Shown: positions 1 to 43,818 of the stretch, piece by piece | Layout: each line of letters begins with the position of its first letter | How positions within the stretch are numbered: the stretch's first letter is position 1 | Assembly (NCBI GenBank): GCA_043756865.1 | Contig: JAYUQG010000019.1 | Location: 33,772-97,771 of the forward strand | Source of the DNA: a bacterium | GTDB taxonomy: Bacteria > Patescibacteriota > Minisyncoccia > Phycocordibacterales > UBA6899 | Length of the DNA stretch: 64,000 nucleotides | Direction of reading: 5' to 3' | Notes under the pieces: model-generated | Seen by the model: only the letters and a program-made list of their open reading frames with translations | Database searches by the model: none | Told to the model about the DNA's origin: nothing | Position numbers and translations under genes: made by a program

Positions 1-192
1 TTACTAATCGTCGCTCTGCACGCCATACAAGTTTTTCTTGCTTCATACATTTCTGCGTTATTAATTTCTGCTAAATAACGAGAAAGCCCACTTCGTTAGA
101 AGTCTCAGGGAACCAACTGGTGATTCTCTCAGGCTTTCTTAACGAAATGGGCGCGGCACGATCGTGCGGTACTCATCCGTAATATTCAATTG

Positions 193-603
193 TTACTTCT
201 TACTATACCTCTTGTATTTCTGTTCGCGCATCTTGGAGGTGTGGATAAGTTGCGTCCGCTTTTGTCCTTCGACCTTCTTAATCTTTTCCGCCACGTCGGA
301 AGCAAGACTGAGGCTGAAATTCCCGTCGGGGGGCAGTATTACGATGTCGAACCCCCGTTTCCTTGCGTTTTCAAGTATTTTCTTTGGTATGAGGGTTTGA
401 AGCGGTATCCCAACCCCTTTTACGGGATCAAAAACCAGACTGCCAGGCTCTCCCGCCTTGGGAAGTGGCGCAAAGATCCGGGGGTATTCTTCTCCTTTTT
501 TCTCCGCATTGTCCATTGCCTTCACAATGTCTGTTGTTGGCTTTGCGGGCGACGAGTGAAGTTTGGGGTCCACGAGTTGTAGGTAAATTTTCTTTCGTTC
601 CAT
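193..603 (-). CDS. hypothetical basic protein (136 aa)
   Basis: ATG at 603 (rc). K/R-rich termini and balanced composition. Overlapping + strand ORFs (164-400, 190-582) look compositionally worse. No recognisable motif. Confidence 0.35.
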   Translation of the reverse strand: MERKKIYLQLVDPKLHSSPAKPTTDIVKAMDNAEKKGEEYPRIFAPLPKAGEPGSLVFDPVKGVGIPLQTLIPKKILENARKRGFDIVILPPDGNFSLSLASDVAEKIKKVEGQKRTQLIHTSKMREQKYKRYSKK

Positions 604-689
604 ACGCCTTACGCTAGCTAATATGCGGGGGAAAGTAAATGATATTTAGGTAATTGACGAGGGGTAAATTCGTTCTAGGATTTGAGATT

Positions 690-2003
690 ATGAAACACTT
701 AAAACCCGAGCAGTATTATATCGACCTTTATGACCGCCATACGGTAGAGCGGTGCCGTGGGGCAGAACGTTCGTATGCACGAACGGATGATCAACCACAG
801 GAGGAGGAAGGAGTGATCAAAGAAGAAGCAGGGCGCATGGAGAAAATGGTGAGAAAGTTATTTCTTCGCGCGGAAGCGGGAGAGCGATATCTCAATAAAT
901 CGAAGGCGATCCGTGAGTGGATGGATGCCGACAGAAATCGTGATGAATTGTTGGACTCCACACAAGCGCCCGAGGGTATCCGCTGTCTGACGTGTCGGAA
1001 TATTGTGAAGCCAACATTTAATGATCTCTGGCTTGCCACAGAAGACAAAAAACCCGAGCGGGTGCTGTTCATGTATGACTGTCCGAATGAATGTCTCCCG
1101 CGTCGTGCGTTTTTCTCCGATGGTGAGGAGTATCGCGTGAAGCCCGATCTTTGCCCGCGCTGTGATGTCCCGCTCGAAAAGAAGAGTGAGGATGACGGGA
1201 AGAAACTAACAACAACGCGCACCTGTCTGAAGTGTGGATACAGCGATACGGATGAATTCGAGTGGTCCTACAAGAAAGAGGATGAGTTCGATCCAAACTT
1301 TGCCGCCGATCGTGATCGCTTCTGCCTTACCACCGAGGAAGGTCAAAAATACTGGGAGGAAAAGTCTTGGTGGGAACGGATGGCGCAGTTTTCGGAAGAA
1401 ATTAAGAAGCAAAACGAAGATTGGGCGGCAAGGCTGGCAGCTAGCCCAAACGGCTTCATTCTCGAAGGTGTTGGTCGTACTTGTGCGATATGTGGCGATG
1501 GGTCTCGAGAAGGCGGTAGTTGGTACGATTCATACGGCTTGAAATGCTTTGTCTGCCAAAAGGCAATTGATGTCGGAGACATACCCGCCACGCTCGCAAA
1601 TGATAAGGAAAGTTGGTACAGCAAATATAATCTCGAAAGTGCGTTTAGTCTTAAGGGTCCAACTCTCAAGAAGTGGGTCAAGGATGGCGTTATCAAGTCC
1701 CGCGTCATTAGCTATTACGGTAAAGGTACTCATTGTGAGATCTTTCTCATCGAAGACAATAAGGGTTTTCTGCCTCCGAAGGAGATGGTTAAATCACATA
1801 GCGTAAGTGAGGTGAAGGATGTCAAGACTTGGCACCATTCGGAGCCATGGTATCGGTTCGTTGATCCGATGGAATATCTCAAGGACTATGGGATCATTAA
1901 GCATATGCGGGTCGTTCCGCCTGAGGAAATGGCGGCTCGGGAAGAGGAGAAGAAGCGGAAATGGGAGGAGAAACAGGAACGCAAAAAGCAAATGAAAAAG
2001 TGA
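690..2003 (+). CDS. multi-zinc-ribbon hypothetical protein with K/E-rich C-terminal tail
   Basis: ORF-track start 654 is TTG; first ATG (MKHLKPEQ) is at 690. Six Cys pairs (CLTC, CPNEC, CPRC, CLKC, CAIC, CFVC) form three predicted Zn ribbons. Tail reads EEEKKRKWEEKQERKKQMKK. Confidence 0.5.
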   Translation: MKHLKPEQYYIDLYDRHTVERCRGAERSYARTDDQPQEEEGVIKEEAGRMEKMVRKLFLRAEAGERYLNKSKAIREWMDADRNRDELLDSTQAPEGIRCLTCRNIVKPTFNDLWLATEDKKPERVLFMYDCPNECLPRRAFFSDGEEYRVKPDLCPRCDVPLEKKSEDDGKKLTTTRTCLKCGYSDTDEFEWSYKKEDEFDPNFAADRDRFCLTTEEGQKYWEEKSWWERMAQFSEEIKKQNEDWAARLAASPNGFILEGVGRTCAICGDGSREGGSWYDSYGLKCFVCQKAIDVGDIPATLANDKESWYSKYNLESAFSLKGPTLKKWVKDGVIKSRVISYYGKGTHCEIFLIEDNKGFLPPKEMVKSHSVSEVKDVKTWHHSEPWYRFVDPMEYLKDYGIIKHMRVVPPEEMAAREEEKKRKWEEKQERKKQMKK

Positions 2004-2075
2004 TACTTAAAAAATTGGTAACCATGTCATTGGACCACTTAACAGAGCCATATTTTGCGATTTTGATTAATGTGC

Positions 2076-2104
2076 TTGACAATTAGTAGCATATAGAATA
2101 CAAT
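2076..2104 (+). promoter_or_regulatory. sigma70-like promoter (TTGACA-17-TACAAT) upstream of the 2139-9606 gene string
   Basis: TTGACA at 2076-2081, 17-nt spacer, TACAAT at 2099-2104. About 35 nt upstream of the ATG at 2139. Confidence 0.45.
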
Positions 2105-2138
2105 CTTATATAAATATTACCAGTATTTATATAAAACT

Positions 2139-2816
2139 ATGAATAATGACAAAAGAGAAAGTTTCAAGCGACTCTCCCAATCCAGATTAGGAAAGATAAC
2201 AGATGCGCTTGATGTATTGGGTAACTGCTCGAATAAGAGTGCTTACGAGTACACAGAGGAGGATGTATCAGAAATTTTTGGCAAAATTGAGGAGAAAGTG
2301 CGCCAGACAAAATCAAGGTTCAAGCTAGAACCAGCTGTGCTTGTTCCTGGTGACAACAAATCTAAGACATGGAAGCAGCTTGCATCTAGTCTGAAGTCGC
2401 ATGGATCGTTGAATCATGCATTCTCTAAGACACAGTGGGGCCATCATTGCGTGCGGTTTTACATTAGAGACAGCATGTTTTGGATTACATGCTATACCGC
2501 GGATTTTAAAGATGCTGATAAGCGTAGATACGGAATATTTATCTCTTACCCAGGCTTTTTTCAGCGAAGCAATATGAGTGTCAGCCAAAAGGCAGCAGTT
2601 GATTCTTTGCAGTCGCTTTTGATTAAGAATGGCGACAAGATTAACAGTGTCCTGCCAGATGCCTATATTGCCGACAAAGATGCGGACGATGGAGAGTTGG
2701 CTGGATGGACTCGTGATCTAAGTGAGTTTCCATCAGATGAAGCGGCAATCGAATGGCTGAAATCAATGCTCGATACATATTCAGAACTTGTAGTCCCATT
2801 GATAAAAGAAGTTTAA
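2139..2816 (+). CDS. hypothetical protein (225 aa), first gene of the island operon
   Basis: ATG start. The stop is 13 nt before the next gene. No motif recognised. Confidence 0.5.
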   Translation: MNNDKRESFKRLSQSRLGKITDALDVLGNCSNKSAYEYTEEDVSEIFGKIEEKVRQTKSRFKLEPAVLVPGDNKSKTWKQLASSLKSHGSLNHAFSKTQWGHHCVRFYIRDSMFWITCYTADFKDADKRRYGIFISYPGFFQRSNMSVSQKAAVDSLQSLLIKNGDKINSVLPDAYIADKDADDGELAGWTRDLSEFPSDEAAIEWLKSMLDTYSELVVPLIKEV

Positions 2817-2829
2817 AATCTTTGGTTTC

Positions 2830-4338
2830 ATGAAATTAATATCTAAATCAAAGTTTCTTCAATATCTCGAGTGTCCAAAGGATACATGGTTTCTGCTGCA
2901 TATGCCGAACCTTCCGGAATTCGAGGTATCGACTTCTGAGCAAGGCATAATGGATCAGGGGAATGTCGTTGAAGAGTATGCAAAGAAGCTCAAAATATTT
3001 GCTGGGTATATTGAGGTCGAGAAACGGGGAAGAGAAGCAGATGAGGAAATTAGAAAACTTCTATCTCAAAAGGTTCCAGCCATATATCAACCCACCTTTG
3101 TTGCTGATGGATTTGTCATTCGTTGTGACTTCCTTGTGTGGAACAACAATGAAAGGAAGTGGGACCTGTATGAGGTGAAGGGCACTAATTCAAAAAAGGA
3201 TGAAGGGGGTCCACGGGACCACATCTCTGATATCGCATTTCAGGCAATCGTACTTGATCGCGCCGGTGTTTCCATTGGTAATAAATACATCGTCCATCTT
3301 AATAATGAGTATATTCGTGGCGACGAGTTGGATGTCGAACAGCTTTTTATTGTGAGCGACAGTACTGCTCAGGTAAAAGAAATGCTTGATGTTACTTCAG
3401 CACAAATGGAAAAGGCTAAAGAGTATCTCAATCAAGAAAATGAGCCGAAGGATGGTTGTGATTGTCATTTTAATGGTCGCAGTAGGCACTGCGACACGTT
3501 TGAGCGTTCACACCCCGAGATACCTGAATATTCCATACACGATATCTCGCGCATTGGGCTAAAGCCAGACAAGTTGATTCAGCTCATCACCGATGGAATT
3601 TATCATCTCGAGGATATCGACGACACATCAGATTTTAGTGTTATTCAGCAGAACCAAATTCATACCCACAAGACGAAGAAGGAAATTATTGATGTAAACG
3701 AGATTGCCAAGATTCTTGATGGTTATAAATATCCACTATACTTTTTTGATTACGAAACATTTGCGCCAGCGGTACCGATATACCCAGGATATGGAACATA
3801 TCGTCGTATCCCGATACAGTTCTCTTTGCACATCATAGACGAAAGGGGTGGTGCACTCCGTCACGTTGATTATGTACATACTGAAAACTCGGATCCATCT
3901 ATTTCAGTAGCCAAAATACTAGCTGATACGATTGATCCGAATGGCACTGTTCTTGCGTGGAATGTGGGGTTTGAAAAAGGTGTTACAAAAGAGCTTTCTG
4001 AACGCTTGCCGGAGTACAAAATTATACTCGATAGAATTTGTGATCAAATGCAGGATTTGCGTGATGTTTTTTCGAAACAACACTATGTGCATAAAGACTT
4101 TTGTGGGAGTTCAGGGGTGGGGGCTGTTATGGAGGCATTGTTGCCACATATGACATATGACCATCTGCCATATACGGGAAACGATGTTGGTTTCGTCTGG
4201 TGGAAGGATATTGTGAACGACGGAGCAAGTCCTGCTGATCGTGAAAAGAAGACGCACCTCATCCGTGAATACTGCAAACAAGATACTTTTGTAATGGTCG
4301 AAATCTTCCGTATCTTGAGTGATATTGCCAGAAATTAA
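2830..4338 (+). CDS. DUF2779-type nuclease-family protein (N-terminal PD-(D/E)xK / Cas4-RecB-like fold)
   Basis: N-terminus ISKSKFLQYLECPKDTWF resembles the DUF2779 family. A ..D..YEVKGT.. E-x-K motif is present, as is FFDYETFAPAVPIY. 502 aa. Confidence 0.6.
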   Translation: MKLISKSKFLQYLECPKDTWFLLHMPNLPEFEVSTSEQGIMDQGNVVEEYAKKLKIFAGYIEVEKRGREADEEIRKLLSQKVPAIYQPTFVADGFVIRCDFLVWNNNERKWDLYEVKGTNSKKDEGGPRDHISDIAFQAIVLDRAGVSIGNKYIVHLNNEYIRGDELDVEQLFIVSDSTAQVKEMLDVTSAQMEKAKEYLNQENEPKDGCDCHFNGRSRHCDTFERSHPEIPEYSIHDISRIGLKPDKLIQLITDGIYHLEDIDDTSDFSVIQQNQIHTHKTKKEIIDVNEIAKILDGYKYPLYFFDYETFAPAVPIYPGYGTYRRIPIQFSLHIIDERGGALRHVDYVHTENSDPSISVAKILADTIDPNGTVLAWNVGFEKGVTKELSERLPEYKIILDRICDQMQDLRDVFSKQHYVHKDFCGSSGVGAVMEALLPHMTYDHLPYTGNDVGFVWWKDIVNDGASPADREKKTHLIREYCKQDTFVMVEIFRILSDIARN

Positions 4339-4454
4339 TTTTGCTTTACGCCGATTAGTAATGGTTGTAGGGTAATGATTGCCGAGGGTGCATACGGGAG
4401 ATTGTCATGCATCGATCCCACTTGGCATAAAATGCAAAATATCAAAATAAATAT

Positions 4455-5666
4455 ATGAATGAAATTATTTGCCCAAATTGTAAAAAAGCTTTCAAGGTTG
4501 ACGAGACCGGATTTGCCGATATTTTAAAGCAAGTCCACGATCATGAGTTTGAAAAAGAACTAAATTCACGTGAGGAAATGCTAAAAAAAGATAAAGAAAA
4601 TGCAGTTAAACTCGCCGAGGCAAATATTACGAACTCACTGCAGAAAGACATTGCAAAGAAGGATGCTGAACTAGCCGAAATAAAATCCAAAATTAATAAC
4701 GCAGAGCTTGAGAAAAAACTTGCAGTCACTGAAGCGGTCAATAAAATTGAAAAAGAGCGCGATGAACTAGCTGGCGAGCTGAAAAGTAAAGATGCTGAGA
4801 AACAACTACTCGAGACATCACTAAAAGATAAATATACTACTGAGCTCAAGACCAAGGACGATATCATCAAGATGAAAGATGAGGAAATTGCTCTTCGTAA
4901 AGATATGAAGGTCAAGCTTTCAACAAAAATGATCGGTGAAACACTTGAACAACACTGCGAAACCGAGTTTAACAAACTTCGCGCAACTGGATTTCAGAAT
5001 TCGTATTTCGAAAAAGACAACGACGCAAAAACTGGCAGTAAGGGTGATTATATCTATCGCGAAACCGATGATGCTGGTAATGAAATCATTTCTATTATGT
5101 TTGAAATGAAAAACGAAGGCGATGAAACAGCTACCAAGAAAAAGAACGAAGACTTTTTACGCGAACTTGATAAGGATCGCGCCGAAAAAAAGTGTGAGTA
5201 TGCCGTTCTAGTTACACTTTTGGAATCTGAAAATGAGCTTTATAACACCGGCATTGTTGATGTTTCTCATAAATACCAAAAAATGTATGTAGTTCGACCA
5301 CAATTTTTCATTCCCATGATAACTCTACTACGCAACGCATCCATGAACTCGCTTAAGTATAAAGCCGAGCTTGCGGTGGTAAGGAATCAGAACATCGATA
5401 TCACCAACTTCGAGGAAAATATGAACAAGTTTAAAGATGGCTTTAAAAAAAATTATGAGCTTGCTTCAAGCCGATTTAAAATAGCAATCGATGAAATCGA
5501 CAAAACCATTGACCATCTTCAGAAAACCAAAGATGCGCTCCTGTCCTCTGAAAATAACCTTCGTCTAGCGAACAATAAAGCAGAATATCTGACAATCAAA
5601 AAACTGACGCATGCCAATCCTACAATGACTAAAATGTTCGCAGATATTACTGATGCAAGTGAATGA
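4455..5666 (+). CDS. DUF2130 family protein (N-terminal CxxC zinc ribbon, long coiled coil, globular C-terminus)
   Basis: [32 protein letters not shown] is a typical DUF2130 N-terminus. A K/E-rich heptad region follows. C-terminal segment [22 protein letters not shown] has a possible D...ExK motif. Confidence 0.65.
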
Positions 5667-6960: not shown

Positions 6961-9606
6961 ATGATTATCAAGGGCATATGTCACAGGTGTCATAATTATG
7001 GGGATATCCAGCCGAACGGATATACCATGGAGGGTATTTGTGAAAATTGTATCAAGGGCGCCCAGCGCGAAAAAATACAAGAGCAGGAAAGGGTAGATAA
7101 AGAGCGACAAGAAAGAATTATCGCCGCTCTTGCACCAGCACAAGCTCTCCTGTCAGGTGGGAATATCATCGGCGCAGACCAGGTTGCTCTTGAGCAAGGA
7201 TCGGACGAATTGCTTGATGAATACGAAAAAATTAAGTCTAAGTATATACAAAAGGATTTACGAAACTTGGAGAAAGAACTCGAGGTGGGTGAAGGATATT
7301 TTGACGATGAAAAGGCCGTTGCTCTTTCTAAAACAGGAAAAAATATCCTTGTTCAAGCGCGAGCTGGTTCGGGGAAGACGACTGCAATAGCGTTGCGAGT
7401 GCGCCACCTAATTAAATTTTACGGTGCGAAGCCCGAAGAAATACTCATTCTTGCATTTAACAGGAAGGCAGCAGAAGAGTTTCGACTACGAATCAATAGC
7501 TACTTCAAAGGATCAAATCAAATTGCTACGGAATCTAACACACTAACATTCCATGCTCTCGCGCGTAGAATAGCAAATACTACAAAGAACATATTGCAGG
7601 ATGAGAGCAGGGATGGGAGCGAGGAGGGACGACATGGTGAAGACAAGAAGTTACAGATTGATTTTGTGCGAGAATGTTTTAATAAGGTAGAAAAAGAAGG
7701 ACATGGTCTTATCGAAAAACTTTTCTATCTATTTTTAAAATCGGCGTCTGAAAAAATTGGTGGCTTATTTAGAAACAGCGAGGACTACTATCTATATTTA
7801 CGAAACCTACAACACGTAACGATAGCTGGAGAGATTGTTAAGTCAAGAGGGGAGAAGTATATTGCCGATTTTCTATTCGAGCATCGAGTTACAAAAAATG
7901 GAAGGGAAATTGAATATGCATATGAGCGCAACATTAAAAAGAATATTAATGCAACTCGTCCATATAGCCCCGACTTCTCACTATTTTTTGTTGAAGATGA
8001 GGAGAAATTAGACCTTCAGGCCGTTGTCGAATTCTTTGGTTTTACCGAAAGTTATCCTGGGTACCCCGGGTTTTTTGAATCGCGGGCTGCGTCCAGGTCA
8101 TATCTAAACGAAGCAGAGCAAAAAAGAATATTATTTCGAGATAAGGACATGAAGCTGGTTGAAATGAACGCCAATGACCTGACATCTTCTGCAGATGTTA
8201 AATTAGAAAATAAGGAAGACGCAAACCGGCAGTGGTTTGAGGAAATCCTTCGACAGCGACTTACGCGGTCTGGTTTCGATATTTCTAAAGAGTGCCTAAG
8301 TATTAAGGAAATACTTGCAAAAATTCCCAAGGTGGAAAGAAGAAAAAAAGCATTGGTAAAACAAATAACGCAATTCATTAACAAGGCTCAAAAAATATCT
8401 TACGATCCGGATACGATCAGAACAATTGCGGGAAAAGAGAAGGAAAACGGAAGATTGAGTAAGCGCACAGAGTATTTTATTAAAATGGCATGTCGAGTAT
8501 ATGAGGAATATCATTCCAGACTGGAGAAGGAGCCGTTCACTGACTTCGACGGACTTCTTGTTGATGCAATAAAGAGAATTAAAAATGAAGGTAGCGTCTG
8601 CAAGATATTGCCCAAGGGAGGAAAGGGAGAGTCCCAAGATATAGGAAACATAAAATACATACTTATTGACGAGTACCAGGACTTTTCGAAATTATTTTGC
8701 GAGCTTATTGATGCAATCAGAACAAATAATCCACAAGTTTCATTTTTTTGTGTCGGAGATGATTGGCAGGCTATCAATGCATTTGCGGGCTCAGATTTAG
8801 AATATTTTGATAACTTTGAAAAATATTTTGTTGGCGGCCGTCGAACAAAGTTGCTGACGAACTATCGTAGTTGTGCACACATAATCGAGCATGCTAATTG
8901 TCTAATGAGGGGCAGGGGTGATGATGGAAAACCACAAGCACAAAAAGCTTTCGGTAGAGTGTATCTCATGTCGTTGCTTTGGGTTGAGAACAGACGGGAT
9001 CAAGAATATGAAGCAGAGTTTTTAGAAGATGAAAAATATAGGTCGGCTGCAAAGTTGCTTCTGGGACTTGAGGATGCTGATAAAGCAGCCCCATTTGAAC
9101 TTGTCTCTTACTTAAAAACCGTCGAGAAGGTTGTAAATGATTTGCCGTCGGATAAAAACATCTGCCTACTATTTCGTGGCAACCACATTCGTGGGTCCGA
9201 AATAACCAAATTCACAGAACAAATCCGTGCATGGACATCAGGTAATAAAAATAGAGTCATATGTTCGACGGCCCATGGATTTAAGGGAAAGGAATGCGAC
9301 GCAATCGTTGTGGTTGATGCAAACCATAGAAGTTATCCAAAGTTTCATCCCGACAATGAGCTAATGGAAATACTCGGCGTAACGTTGTCGAAGGTGATAG
9401 ACGAGGAGCGTCGCCTATTCTATGTGGCAATTACGAGAGCAAAGGAAAGTTTATATTTGCTATATGACAACGGTGCGACGGTTGGTATATCGGATTTTAT
9501 TGGAGAAATTGAAAAAGGTGGCTGGAATTATGAGTTAATGTCATCACGTGGCTCAAGTAAGAAGCTAGACGAGGAGCTAGATATGGGTGATGAAATTGCC
9601 TTTTAA
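6961..9606 (+). CDS. SF1 UvrD/PcrA-like DNA helicase with N-terminal zinc ribbon and large 1B-region insertion
   Basis: N-terminal CHRCHNYG..CENC. Walker A AGSGKTT. Motif II YILIDEYQDF, motif III VGDDWQAINAFAGS, motif IV NYRS, motif V TAHGFKGKECD, motif VI FYVAITRAKESLYL. About 400 aa inserted between motifs Ia and II. Confidence 0.8.
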   Translation: MIIKGICHRCHNYGDIQPNGYTMEGICENCIKGAQREKIQEQERVDKERQERIIAALAPAQALLSGGNIIGADQVALEQGSDELLDEYEKIKSKYIQKDLRNLEKELEVGEGYFDDEKAVALSKTGKNILVQARAGSGKTTAIALRVRHLIKFYGAKPEEILILAFNRKAAEEFRLRINSYFKGSNQIATESNTLTFHALARRIANTTKNILQDESRDGSEEGRHGEDKKLQIDFVRECFNKVEKEGHGLIEKLFYLFLKSASEKIGGLFRNSEDYYLYLRNLQHVTIAGEIVKSRGEKYIADFLFEHRVTKNGREIEYAYERNIKKNINATRPYSPDFSLFFVEDEEKLDLQAVVEFFGFTESYPGYPGFFESRAASRSYLNEAEQKRILFRDKDMKLVEMNANDLTSSADVKLENKEDANRQWFEEILRQRLTRSGFDISKECLSIKEILAKIPKVERRKKALVKQITQFINKAQKISYDPDTIRTIAGKEKENGRLSKRTEYFIKMACRVYEEYHSRLEKEPFTDFDGLLVDAIKRIKNEGSVCKILPKGGKGESQDIGNIKYILIDEYQDFSKLFCELIDAIRTNNPQVSFFCVGDDWQAINAFAGSDLEYFDNFEKYFVGGRRTKLLTNYRSCAHIIEHANCLMRGRGDDGKPQAQKAFGRVYLMSLLWVENRRDQEYEAEFLEDEKYRSAAKLLLGLEDADKAAPFELVSYLKTVEKVVNDLPSDKNICLLFRGNHIRGSEITKFTEQIRAWTSGNKNRVICSTAHGFKGKECDAIVVVDANHRSYPKFHPDNELMEILGVTLSKVIDEERRLFYVAITRAKESLYLLYDNGATVGISDFIGEIEKGGWNYELMSSRGSSKKLDEELDMGDEIAF

Positions 9607-43415: not shown

Positions 43416-43488
43416 GGGCCGTTAGCTCATCTGGTAGAGCACCGCATTTGCAATGCGGGGGTGGCAGGTTCGAGTCCTGTACGGTCCA
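43416..43488 (+). tRNA. tRNA-Ala (anticodon TGC)
   Basis: Cloverleaf by eye: acceptor GGGCCGT/ACGGTCC, D-arm GCTC..GAGC, anticodon arm CCGCA-TTTGCAA-TGCGG, T-arm GCAGG-TTCGAGT-CCTGT, discriminator A. No encoded CCA. Confidence 0.85.
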
Positions 43489-43496
43489 CAAGCGTC

Positions 43497-43523: not shown

Positions 43524-43745
43524 CGCTTGTGGACCGTAGCAAGCTAACTGCTTGGCTTGCGTAAGGACTCGAAAGGCTTTGCGATGTTTATGAAGCATTC
43601 TGATGCTGAATAAACCGCAAAGGCATACAGTCCTCGTAGAGGAAGAGTCATGTGTAATTGCTTGTCGAGATTTCTTTGCAGCAAAAGCGTAGTAGATTTT
43701 TGTTGAGGCGCAAATATAAAACGCCCACCAGCGTCTTATTATTTG

Positions 43746-43818
43746 TGGACCATAGCGGACTCGAACCGCTCACCTCATCCATGCCATGGATGCGCTCTAC
43801 CAGATGAGCTAATGGCCC
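43746..43818 (-). tRNA. tRNA-Ala (anticodon GGC)
   Basis: rc reads GGGCCAT-TA-GCTC-ATCTGGT-AGAGC-G-CATCC-ATGGCAT-GGATG-AGGTG-AGCGG-TTCGAGT-CCGCT-ATGGTCC-A. It is convergent with the other tRNA-Ala. Confidence 0.8.

Follow-up and report, generated by a model that had tools for sequence, protein, structure and literature searches.

A DUF2779 protein joining a Cas4/RecB-like nuclease domain to a DEDDy exonuclease domain, encoded on a two-gene cassette in a Patescibacteria island

The window, by which we mean the whole 64 kb stretch of DNA analyzed here, contains an open reading frame (ORF) whose product combines two nuclease domains and whose coordinates are exactly those given by the first-pass annotation. 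The ORF follows a small orphan gene and adjoins a mobile element. Residue conservation was assessed in two alignments, one of 47 close and one of 77 divergent DUF2779 members. The features of the locus are:

654–2003, + strand: orf449 (multi-Zn-ribbon protein), the right-hand core gene of an integrase–terminase–ParB–MTase element
2029–4340, + strand: two-gene cassette (promoter region, orf225 and DUF2779 gene), conserved with L185
2076–2104, + strand: Sigma-70-like promoter, TTGACA-17-TACAAT (11/12), located ~35 nt ahead of orf225
2139–2816, + strand: orf225, an orphan gene of 225 aa, 13 nt upstream of the DUF2779 ORF; lineage-specific partner of a DUF2779 sub-clade
2830–4338, + strand: DUF2779-family ORF, ATG start, 502 aa, comprising Cas4-like nuclease, helical linker and DEDDy exonuclease
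2830–3513, + strand: N-terminal Cas4/RecB-like PD-(D/E)xK domain, about residues 1–228
2872–2874, + strand: C15, first putative Fe–S ligand (motif ECPKD), from conservation in both alignments
3127–3180, + strand: PD-(D/E)xK core, D100 ... E115-V-K117, conserved in both alignments
3457–3492, + strand: C210-x-C212-x8-C221, three further putative Fe–S ligands, from conservation in both alignments
3514–3729, + strand: helical linker, about residues 229–300, with helices 246–254, 271–282 and 289–297 in the model secondary structure
3730–4335, + strand: C-terminal DEDDy 3'-5' exonuclease domain, RNase H-like fold, residues 301–502; Pfam DUF2779 covers 3739–4113
3748–3756, + strand: Exo I motif, D307-Y-E309, invariant (77/77)
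3961–3975, + strand: Exo II-like motif, N378-V-G-F381-E382; E382 invariant (77/77), F381 in 66/77
4054–4056, + strand: D409, an additional invariant acidic residue (77/77), at the end of β-strand 407–409 (model)
4270–4284, + strand: Exo III motif, Y481-C-K-Q-D485, with the "y" of DEDDy; Y481 and D485 invariant (77/77)
4455–5666, + strand: DUF2130 gene (Pfam E = 1.5e-88; GC 0.373)
6961–9606, + strand: UvrD/helicase IV-like SF1 helicase, 881 aa, with Pfam, NCBIfam and GajB-type matches; candidate motor partner

The Pfam match, the homologues and the size of the family together establish the DUF2779 ORF as a real gene. The PF11074 (DUF2779) profile scores 116.8 bits (E = 9.9e-34; gathering threshold 23.3 bits) and aligns to residues 304–428 over profile positions 1–125 of 126; the isolated C-terminal domain alone scores 118.8 bits. 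A 90%-clustered protein database holds 926 homologues, with hits covering 98–100% of the query at 45–89% identity, which makes the protein a member of a full-length fusion family. This family comprises 6131 clusters (50% identity, E ≤ 1e-3), almost all full length at ~490–500 aa, whose representatives align from residues 1–4 to ~497–500 with 29–47% identity, and it occurs in at least 583 species genomes. The mycoplasma-type NCBIfam model NF045869 (UU173) matched partially, at residues 200–350, with 41.3 bits and thus below its cutoff of 225, and PDB sequence searches with the protein and with the family profile gave no significant match. The first-pass annotation had recognized DUF2779 in the N-terminal segment ISKSKFLQYLECPKDTWF (residues 4–21) and had proposed an alignment to the Pfam model. 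The family assignment holds, but the model aligns to the C-terminal block; the N-terminal segment is nevertheless conserved in the full-length family, with K6, C15 and W20 in at least 90% of the 77 divergent members.

The N-terminal domain has a restriction-endonuclease-like fold. The D...E-V-K triad of Cas4/RecB type that had been noted at first reading is present in DFLVWNNNERKWDLYEVKGT (residues 100–119) as D100, E115 and K117. It is widely conserved, occurring in 47/47 close members and, among the divergent ones, in 76/77 (D100), 74/77 (E115) and 75/77 (K117); D134 and Q138 are each found in 75/77. Conservation further suggests that C15, C210, C212 and C221 probably hold a 4Fe–4S cluster. 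All four cysteines occur together in each of the 47 close members and in 44 of the 77 divergent ones; the remaining divergent members mostly retain C15 and C221 alone. Position 15 is Cys in every close member and in 70 of the 77 divergent ones, the other seven having His. Canonical Cas4 cysteines are spaced C-x2-C-x5-C, as opposed to the C-x-C-x8-C of the window protein.

The block FFDYETFAP (residues 305–313), suspected in the first-pass annotation of belonging to a second, RNase-H-like module, indeed lies in a domain of RNase H-like/DnaQ fold. The DEDDy motif set is complete (D-x-E of Exo I, an acidic residue at Exo II, Y-x3-D of Exo III), and D307, E309, E382, Y481 and D485 are invariant. 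The Exo II position is Glu across the DUF2779 family, where canonical DEDD enzymes have Asp, and Y481 and D485 fall within the terminal helix (468–501) of the model secondary structure. The best matches of this domain are DNA enzymes, namely polymerase proofreading domains, MrfB, Pol III epsilon, ExoI and TREX1. The linker between the two domains matched no Pfam family at E ≤ 10, and a helix-hairpin-helix motif read from ISRIGLKPDKLIQL was dropped for want of Pfam support at that threshold.

Computational analyses have already reported the fusion of a Cas4-like with a DEDD domain (Majorek et al. 2014, as family F.17; mSphere 2026), so the window protein is a further member of a known family. 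Another is MMSYN1_0389 of JCVI-syn3.0, a quasi-essential DUF2779 homologue (mSphere 2026). As in these PF11074 proteins, an N-terminal Cas4-like PD-(D/E)xK domain precedes a C-terminal DEDD(y) domain, and the D/E/K triad, the four acidic residues and the Tyr are the same as in MMSYN1_0389. The Mycoplasma protein, however, has a Cas4-like region of up to ~380 aa and two putative Fe–S cysteines, whereas the window protein, at 502 aa overall, is more compact and has four; moreover, MMSYN1_0389 is a quasi-essential core gene, while the window gene belongs to a mobile cassette within a Patescibacteria island. The protein differs from structurally characterized Cas4 (SSO0001, 4IC1; Pcal_0546, 4R5Q; Cas4–Cas1, 7MI4; type I-C Cas4, 8D3L) in its fused second nuclease and in having no CRISPR/cas context. 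Compared with MrfB and the DnaQ-like DEDD exonucleases (Pol III epsilon, ExoI, TREX1), it has Tyr for His, like the polymerase exo domains, Glu at Exo II, the additional invariant D409 and the fused Cas4-like domain. It carries no helicase or motor domain, unlike RecBCD/AddAB, AdnAB and Dna2, does not belong to RecBCD/AddAB, and has a second nuclease of DEDD rather than RecB type. Closer in layout are the COG2251/PF13482 proteins (Majorek 2014, F.13), in which a DUF83-like PD-(D/E)xK domain accompanies a predicted 3'-5' exonuclease of RNase H-like type; these often contain tandem AAA/helicase domains, and their exonuclease is of family PF13482, whereas a Pfam search of the window protein found no ATPase domain, also at E ≤ 10. 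The Cas2–DEDDh "trimmer-integrase" (8FYC) likewise recruits a DEDD exonuclease to DNA-end trimming in an immunity context, yet there the DEDDh domain is fused to Cas2 and works with Cas1, partners that the window locus does not have.

In the window genome, orf225 and the DUF2779 gene form a 2.3-kb mobile cassette and not a core chromosomal gene. Compared with L185, from another metagenome, the cassette is 84.5% identical in nucleotides over 2312 bp (blastn) between unrelated flanks. The orf225 product has only three homologues among 5.8e9 proteins and no Pfam, PADLOC, NCBIfam or PHROG match. Two of the three immediately precede a closely related DUF2779 gene, in L185 (92%/89%) and L089 (61%/71%). 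P0275, the remaining homologue (51%), comes from a contig of 3211 bp, which is also the length of the contig with P0005, so a third orf225–DUF2779 pair is likely. The promoter ahead of orf225 is a consensus match only, and such sites are not more numerous in the region than expected by chance. GC content (0.419) and GC3 (0.406) of the DUF2779 gene are below those of the rest of the window (0.479 ± 0.021 and 0.487 ± 0.038), which places the gene in an island.

The adjoining integrase–terminase–ParB–MTase element runs leftwards past the window start. PHROGs matches identify orf500 as large terminase, orf139 as small terminase, the MTase as phage ParB-MTase and the recombinase as phage integrase, and thereby rule out that the recurring block of MTase–orf139–orf500, divergent to DUF2779/orf449, is a new RM-like system. 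The DUF2779 gene is situated between core genes of the mobile element in six loci; in a reciprocal scan, 5 of 46 such elements contained it. A single-sequence scan of IMG/VR with orf449 gave no match. A fixed operon with the DUF2130 gene or the UvrD-like helicase was rejected: the former occurs in none of 80 DUF2779 and 80 orf449 loci, and the latter was found in L091 alone, as a 57%-identical orthologue directly downstream of DUF2779.

Across about 80 genomes, DUF2779 loci have no fixed partner, and every neighbor family is confined to 10 or fewer of 83 loci. The two sides of the gene differ: upstream neighbors are restriction, helicase or defence genes in ~24% of cases, while downstream neighbors are housekeeping genes, among them the DNA-metabolism genes RNase T/ExoX-like, DciA, RuvX and FtsK. 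We relied on this asymmetry, as control genes 4–5 positions away (A4) also included defence genes and are not an independent background. Tight upstream gaps were discarded as a sign of coupling, the median of 9 nt being unremarkable against a background of 19 nt. PADLOC v2 placed the DUF2779 protein in no known defence system, the only matches being a weak Cas4 and a marginal RT_VII-A2 one; the UvrD-like helicase matches GajB models, with no GajA present. The effector role within the island that had been proposed on first reading is only partly supported: the gene lies in an island, on a cassette, and defence-type genes are often found upstream of its relatives, but partners vary, downstream genes are housekeeping and no CRISPR is present.

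From its motifs and folds, we consider the protein most likely to be a motor-less nuclease that trims both strands at DNA ends, and its most likely biological role to be that of an accessory nuclease against linear restricted or invading DNA. To the complete reading, a two-module, motor-less, metal-dependent DNA-end nuclease serving as accessory degrader of linear DNA beside restriction/helicase systems, we assign a probability of roughly 45%. Cas4/AddB-type nucleases have single-stranded DNA threaded through them and cleave from or near 5' ends, and residues 1–228 would act in this manner. Residues 301–502 would use two-metal catalysis, involving D307, E309, E382, D485 and Y481, to strip nucleotides from 3' ends. 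With one module for 5' and one for 3' ends, a single polypeptide could trim the two strands of a DNA end or flap, comparable to the two nuclease sites of RecBCD/AddAB or to Cas4 and DnaQ-type trimmers on CRISPR prespacers. Since the protein has no helicase, it would depend for unwinding on a neighbor or on the DNA end fraying. It may degrade restricted or invading linear DNA alongside restriction or helicase systems.

A possible, if somewhat doubtful, alternative is that DUF2779 proteins are housekeeping DNA-repair or recombination nucleases for end resection and flap trimming that replace RecBCD/AddAB/RecJ in reduced genomes. The island position would then be incidental, the 5' flank being an insertion hot spot. 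The very broad distribution of the family and its housekeeping downstream neighbors fit such a role, as do the synteny of one sub-lineage with dnaG, rpoD and a DsbA-like gene, a Yonathbacteria relative amid housekeeping genes with DinB and Pol III tau nearby, and the recurrence of hemerythrin downstream in distant relatives. A homologue was found in a Mycoplasma bovis growth screen, and quasi-essentiality of the JCVI-syn3.0 homologue on rich, phage-free medium argues that some lineages at least use the protein for maintenance. Against this stand the foreign composition of the window gene, the cassette shared at 84.5% nucleotide identity between unrelated flanks and the six loci with the gene between mobile-element core genes; in addition, relatives at 62–89% identity have no common downstream synteny, and some share upstream RM genes. 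These same mobile contexts could instead indicate a recombination or replication nuclease of RecE/lambda-Exo or phage Cas4-like type that serves the element and not the host. The recurrence within one element family, a Prim-Pol/AAA_25 gene nearby in L086, the many phage PD-(D/E)xK/Cas4-like proteins matching the N-terminal half and three giant-virus proteins matching the full length point in this direction. We nevertheless regard it as unlikely, because few of the elements contain the gene, the DUF2779 protein has no PHROG match, only 12 loci occur in 2.9 million IMG/VR contigs, and most family members reside in non-mobile contexts.

DEDD enzymes frequently use RNA, and the C-terminal domain might accordingly process or degrade RNA 3' ends, with the PD-(D/E)xK domain as endoribonuclease or binding module. 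This is quite improbable given the DNA enzymes among the best matches, the DNA-directed enzymes encoded nearby and the fact that Cas4/AddB/MGME1/Dna2-type domains have DNA as substrate. For a bona fide CRISPR adaptation Cas4 that trims prespacers, the only Cas4 match is the weak PADLOC one (25.5 bits, E = 3.8e-6). The alignment to Cas4 proposed at first reading yielded no match to a Pfam Cas4 or PDDEXK model even at E ≤ 10, the 64 kb window has no CRISPR array, and neither cas1 nor cas2 occurs in any Pfam-annotated neighborhood examined, so this function is effectively refuted for the window locus.

The DUF2779 family is large, with thousands of clusters, and includes a quasi-essential JCVI-syn3.0 gene whose role is an acknowledged puzzle. 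The window locus brings no novelty in architecture. It supplies a compact member with a complete putative Fe–S cysteine set, a defined cassette, the candidate partner orf225 and a candidate helicase. Together with the genomic pattern, in which restriction/helicase genes lie upstream, housekeeping genes follow and the gene recurs in a mobile-element cargo slot, it yields hypotheses open to test: degradation of DNA ends with both polarities, and an accessory part in defence as against one in repair. A broader and rather speculative proposal, to which we give little weight, is that two-nuclease DUF2779 proteins serve Patescibacteria as a modular effector against foreign DNA, finishing off DNA ends exposed by restriction, helicase or defence systems. 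If so, DUF2779 would be the last gene of type I, III, IIG RM, Hhe and SNF2/PDC-S37 operons, or alternatively would make up a self-sufficient mobile cassette together with a small orphan gene, here orf225, and would substitute for RecBCD where repair machinery is minimal. The orf225–DUF2779 cassette would in that case be a novel module of two genes for defence or counter-defence, moving between islands and satellite-like elements.

The open reading frame at 2830..4338 on the + strand starts with ATG and encodes 502 amino acids, as the first-pass annotation had proposed, and judged from its sequence it is a real gene. A 90%-clustered database returned 926 homologues, the best at 45-89% identity over 98-100% of the protein, and when 1.84 billion representatives were searched exhaustively with HMMER, 6131 clusters passed E<=1e-3 and 1541 passed E<=1e-30; almost all have about 490-500 aa and align end to end. 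Named relatives come from Patescibacteria/CPR MAGs (e.g., Staskawiczbacteria, Yonathbacteria, Paceibacteria, Adlerbacteria), and at least 583 GTDB species genomes contain a relative. The gene is not always single-copy, since two copies occur on a single predicted viral contig (loci L096 and L100; IMG/VR, 55 kb) and in a single MAG, JBFWRV01 (L017 and L019).

Pfam PF11074 (DUF2779) matches the protein with 116.8 bits (E 9.9e-34), which upholds the family assignment, but the model covers residues 304-428, the "FFDYETFAP" block; placing DUF2779 at the N-terminus was the one domain mis-assignment in an otherwise correct earlier reading. The three peptides quoted in that reading correspond to residues 4-21, 100-119 and 305-313, and the N-terminal one is conserved in full-length members, with K6, C15 and W20 each kept by at least 90% of 77 divergent sequences. 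A confident AlphaFold2 model (47-sequence alignment, mean pLDDT 93.1, pTM 0.88) comprises two alpha/beta domains, N-terminal (about residues 1-228) and C-terminal (residues 301-502), joined by a linker of three helices (about residues 229-300). The top PDB structures retrieved by Foldseek were Cas4 (4R5Q and 7MI4), then MGME1, and the C-terminal half resembles the DEDD 3'-5' exonucleases TREX1, ERI1 and RNase D; these matches reveal both a restriction-endonuclease-like and an RNase-H-like fold. By sequence, the N-terminal domain gave only a weak PADLOC Cas4 match (E 3.8e-6), and Pfam yielded no model for it up to E 10. Neither the protein nor the family profile finds a PDB sequence, and DUF2779 relatives are therefore without a solved structure. 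Three giant-virus proteins of 814-892 aa in BFVD, A0A3G4ZWN9 (Faunusvirus), A0A5K0U8I2 (Yasminevirus) and A0A3G5AGZ9 (Sylvanvirus), aligned with the model over the two domains, with query-normalised TM-scores of 0.58-0.64 and a best E of 6e-15, and from these matches the two-nuclease arrangement seems to exist also in giant viruses of eukaryotes.

Residue conservation was scored in 77 members at 28-47% identity and in 47 close relatives. The postulated D...E-V-K triad is near-invariant in the divergent set (D100 76/77, E115 74/77, K117 75/77), as are D134 and Q138 (75/77 each), and D307, E309, E382, D409, Y481 and D485 are invariant. The suspected C-terminal RNase-H-like module is likewise substantiated by its DEDD exonuclease fold and invariant residues in Exo I (D307-x-E309), Exo II (N378-x2-F381-E382, with Glu replacing the usual Asp) and Exo III; since the last reads Y481-x3-D485, the domain is of the DEDDy type. 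Beyond the canonical DEDD set, H334 (72/77), H345 (75/77) and D409 (77/77) are conserved, encoded at window 3829-3831, 3862-3864 and 4054-4056. All four cysteines, C15, C210, C212 and C221, occur in the window protein, in every one of the 47 close relatives and in 44/77 divergent members, most of the others retaining C15 and C221 only; the Mycoplasma homologue MMSYN1_0389 has two cysteines, in contrast to these four (PMC13621843). This pattern fits an optional Cas4/AddB-like Fe-S cluster, putatively retained by the window protein. The two-nuclease architecture is not new, since Majorek et al. 2014 listed PF11074 as family F.17 of the RNase H-like superfamily, in its 3'-5' exonuclease clade, and noted its co-occurrence with a PD-(D/E)xK (DUF83) domain (PMC3985635), and the paper on MMSYN1_0389 from JCVI-syn3.0 describes the same D/E/K triad, four acidic residues and Tyr as conserved (PMC13621843). 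That paper classed the gene as quasi-essential and concluded that its role must go "beyond bacterial immunity". The window protein belongs to this known family, described computationally.

The contig continues left of the window (coordinates on L001, the locus taken from the gene's own contig, equal window + 7171), and the surrounding genes are arranged as follows:

Left of window, in order: SMC_N/AAA_23 gene, dnd-associated gene, DnaA_C + DUF4357 gene
Minus strand: serine integrase (phrog_95, E 2e-56)
Minus strand, after the integrase: large terminase (phrog_38, E 5e-76)
Minus strand, after the large terminase: small terminase
Minus strand: ParB-DNA methyltransferase (phrog_498, E 2e-75)
Minus strand, after the ParB-DNA methyltransferase: 136-aa gene
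654-2003, plus strand: orf449
2139-2816, plus strand: orf225
4455-5666, plus strand: DUF2130 gene (Pfam E 1.5e-88)
Plus strand, between DUF2130 and helicase: orf268, then a 98-aa ORF
6961-9606, plus strand: UvrD/helicase IV-like helicase, 881 aa

Composition splits this region into three classes: low values (GC 0.37-0.43, GC3 0.35-0.42) mark orf225, DUF2779, DUF2130, the helicase and the genes left of the integrase, the integrase-to-orf449 block has GC3 0.52-0.56, and the rest of the window has GC 0.479+-0.021 and GC3 0.487+-0.038. On the simplest reading, DUF2779 belongs to an older low-GC island that received a small integrase-terminase element by insertion. The low-GC trio left of the window (L001:1-2611) consists of a 673-aa SMC_N/AAA_23 ATPase cut by the end of L001, a 134-aa DNA_S_mod_dnd_assoc_4 protein and a 646-aa Bac_DnaA_C + DUF4357 protein with a C-terminal match to the PADLOC candidate PDC-S14 (E 7e-22); the trio may represent a defence module that the terminase element has broken up. 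The DUF2130 gene has the lowest GC of the region (0.373), and its product, which has a weak LmuB match (E 8e-4), begins with a CxxC...Zn-ribbon-like stretch, continues with a long Lys/Glu-rich region of coiled-coil-like character and has a C-terminal segment, "GDYIY...IMFEMKNE", that by eye reads like a D...E-x-K nuclease motif. The helicase has a Cys-rich N-terminus, a long insert between its 1A and 2A halves and strong GajB-type PADLOC matches; GajA is absent. Unrelated to DUF2779, two tRNA-Ala genes with TGC and GGC anticodons converge at 43416-43489 (+) and 43745-43818 (-), separated by about 250 nt.

The closest relative, P0002 (89% identity), is encoded on metagenome contig L185, where leftward TerS-like, MTase and 101-aa genes stand back to back with rightward 225-aa, DUF2779 and 278-aa genes. 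L185 aligns by blastn to window 2029-4340 with 84.5% identity over 2312 bp between unrelated flanks, and this span starts just past the orf449 stop and ends at the DUF2779 stop. Only three orf225 homologues were found among 5.8 billion proteins, and in two cases the next gene downstream encodes a close relative of the DUF2779 protein (L185; L089, 61%/71%). The third probably forms another pair with P0005, a further relative, since both contigs measure 3211 bp. Positions 2076-2104 hold a promoter-like sequence close to the consensus, TTGACA-17-TACAAT, the orf225-DUF2779 gap is 13 nt, and no terminator-like site was found downstream of DUF2779. For orf225 itself there is no family match in Pfam, NCBIfam, PADLOC or PHROGs.

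Among 80 DUF2779 loci fetched from GTDB species genomes by similarity to the window protein, DUF2130 and the 225-aa gene were found in none, and the helicase is represented solely by one 57% orthologue, directly downstream of DUF2779 in L091. Clustering of 750 neighbouring ORFs placed the commonest neighbour family in at most 10 of 83 loci. A predicted PF13482 (RNase_H_2) exonuclease of 190-210 aa lies 1-2 kb from DUF2779 in one sub-lineage (L022, L037, L039, L059, L060, L068 and related loci) and three other loci have an RNase T/ExoX-like exonuclease gene directly after DUF2779; exonuclease genes seem to cluster near DUF2779.

The 68 immediate upstream neighbours include, by Pfam, seven ResIII-type helicases (four SNF2), four SF1 AAA_11/12 helicases (three with an MTES_1575 endonuclease domain), two AAA_13, two HNH and one DpnI protein, and PADLOC identified four Hhe (best E 7e-150) and four PDC-S37 (best E 4.5e-290). 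None of these families appears among the matches listed for the 71 immediate downstream neighbours, which are housekeeping-type (DsbA-like, RNase T/ExoX-like, hemerythrin, sigma-70, DciA, FtsK, RuvX). By our count, at least 16/68 upstream neighbours (about 24%) are restriction, helicase or defence genes; five DsbA-like and two sigma-70 genes are also among the upstream neighbours. Genes of at least 650 aa are found at 16/80 upstream vs 2/78 downstream positions (Fisher p 7e-4); "distal" control genes also included defence genes and are not an independent background. In the window's clade (62-89% identity), a same-strand RM, MTase or HNH gene lies upstream in nine sampled contexts: type I RM with HsdR as its last gene before DUF2779, type III Mod/Res with PDC-S11 (two genomes), a 1338-aa ResIII + Eco57I protein (two genomes), an N6_Mtase/Eco57I gene with a UvrD helicase downstream of DUF2779, HNH or, in the window and in L185, the ParB-MTase block.

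DUF2779 is recurrently tight against Hhe-like SF1 helicase-endonucleases or PDC-S37-matching SNF2 helicases (L028, L041, L052, L062, L072 and L032, L040, L043, L080, plus L054, L085), with Hhe-like gaps of 0-1 nt in L041 and L028, tight gaps being normal in these compact genomes. Hhe is described as a single-gene system, so a DUF2779 companion would make a Hhe variant. L089 (1-9503) and L090 (1-9500) share a block of SNF2 (981 aa), a small gene, type III Mod, type III Res, a gene of about 370 aa, an orf225 homologue (L089) and DUF2779; the 368-aa protein of L089 matches PDC-S11 (E 9e-146) and the 371-aa protein of L090 has no PADLOC match.

The MTase-orf139-orf500 block with orf449 was considered as a candidate system and rejected, since it proved to be the terminase element. 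When orf449 alone was used to select loci in a reciprocal scan, 46 of at least 8 kb were obtained, containing MTase (25), TerS (22), integrase (19), TerL (13) and DUF2779 (5); DUF2130, orf268 and the helicase occur in 0/46. Present in only 5/46, DUF2779 is accessory to the element, albeit more frequent than expectation for a gene in single copy (0.7-1.2 loci; P about 0.001-0.008). In six loci it occupies a variable slot between MTase and orf449, where Hhe (L062) or an SNF2 helicase (L032) is found as well. The element core comprises leftward serine integrase, TerL, TerS and ParB-DNA MTase genes and, beyond this cargo slot, rightward orf449, a multi-Zn-ribbon protein. Here it spans L001:2644-9174 (window 1-2003 plus about 4.5 kb leftward), with related loci L105-L184, L030, L032, L035 and L062. 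The group is a family of small Patescibacteria integrative elements that carry their own terminase; neither portal nor capsid genes were seen, and the type is reminiscent of a phage satellite or cryptic element.

The DUF2779 protein has two nuclease folds with complete, conserved active sites and no ATPase, encoded in a mobile cassette of foreign composition. By analogy with their families, the Cas4/AddB-type domain would act on single-stranded 5' ends or flaps via an Fe-S-stapled channel and the DEDDy domain would take off 3' nucleotides by two-metal catalysis; jointly they may act on both strands of a DNA end, trimming or degrading them. Having no motor of its own, the protein would need frayed ends, a helicase or a translocase, candidates being the neighbouring UvrD-like helicase in the window and HsdR, Res, SNF2 or Hhe elsewhere.

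Its biochemical identity as a dual nuclease acting on DNA ends is highly probable. The main rival, a housekeeping enzyme for end processing or repair with an island-attracting 5' flank, is less probable than the preferred reading below; in its favour, MMSYN1_0389 is quasi-essential in Mycoplasma (PMC13621843) and some lineages show housekeeping synteny, a single sub-lineage being syntenic with a DsbA-like gene, the PF13482 exonuclease, rpoD and dnaG. An element-encoded recombination nuclease is improbable, an RNA exonuclease somewhat more so, and a true CRISPR Cas4, with no CRISPR array found in the 64 kb window, highly improbable. The effector role suggested by the first-pass annotation gains quantitative genomic-context support and is plausible rather than demonstrated. 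Our preferred reading, to which we assign a probability of roughly 0.45, is that the window protein would be a dual nuclease acting on DNA ends and, in island contexts, an accessory degrader of linear or foreign DNA.
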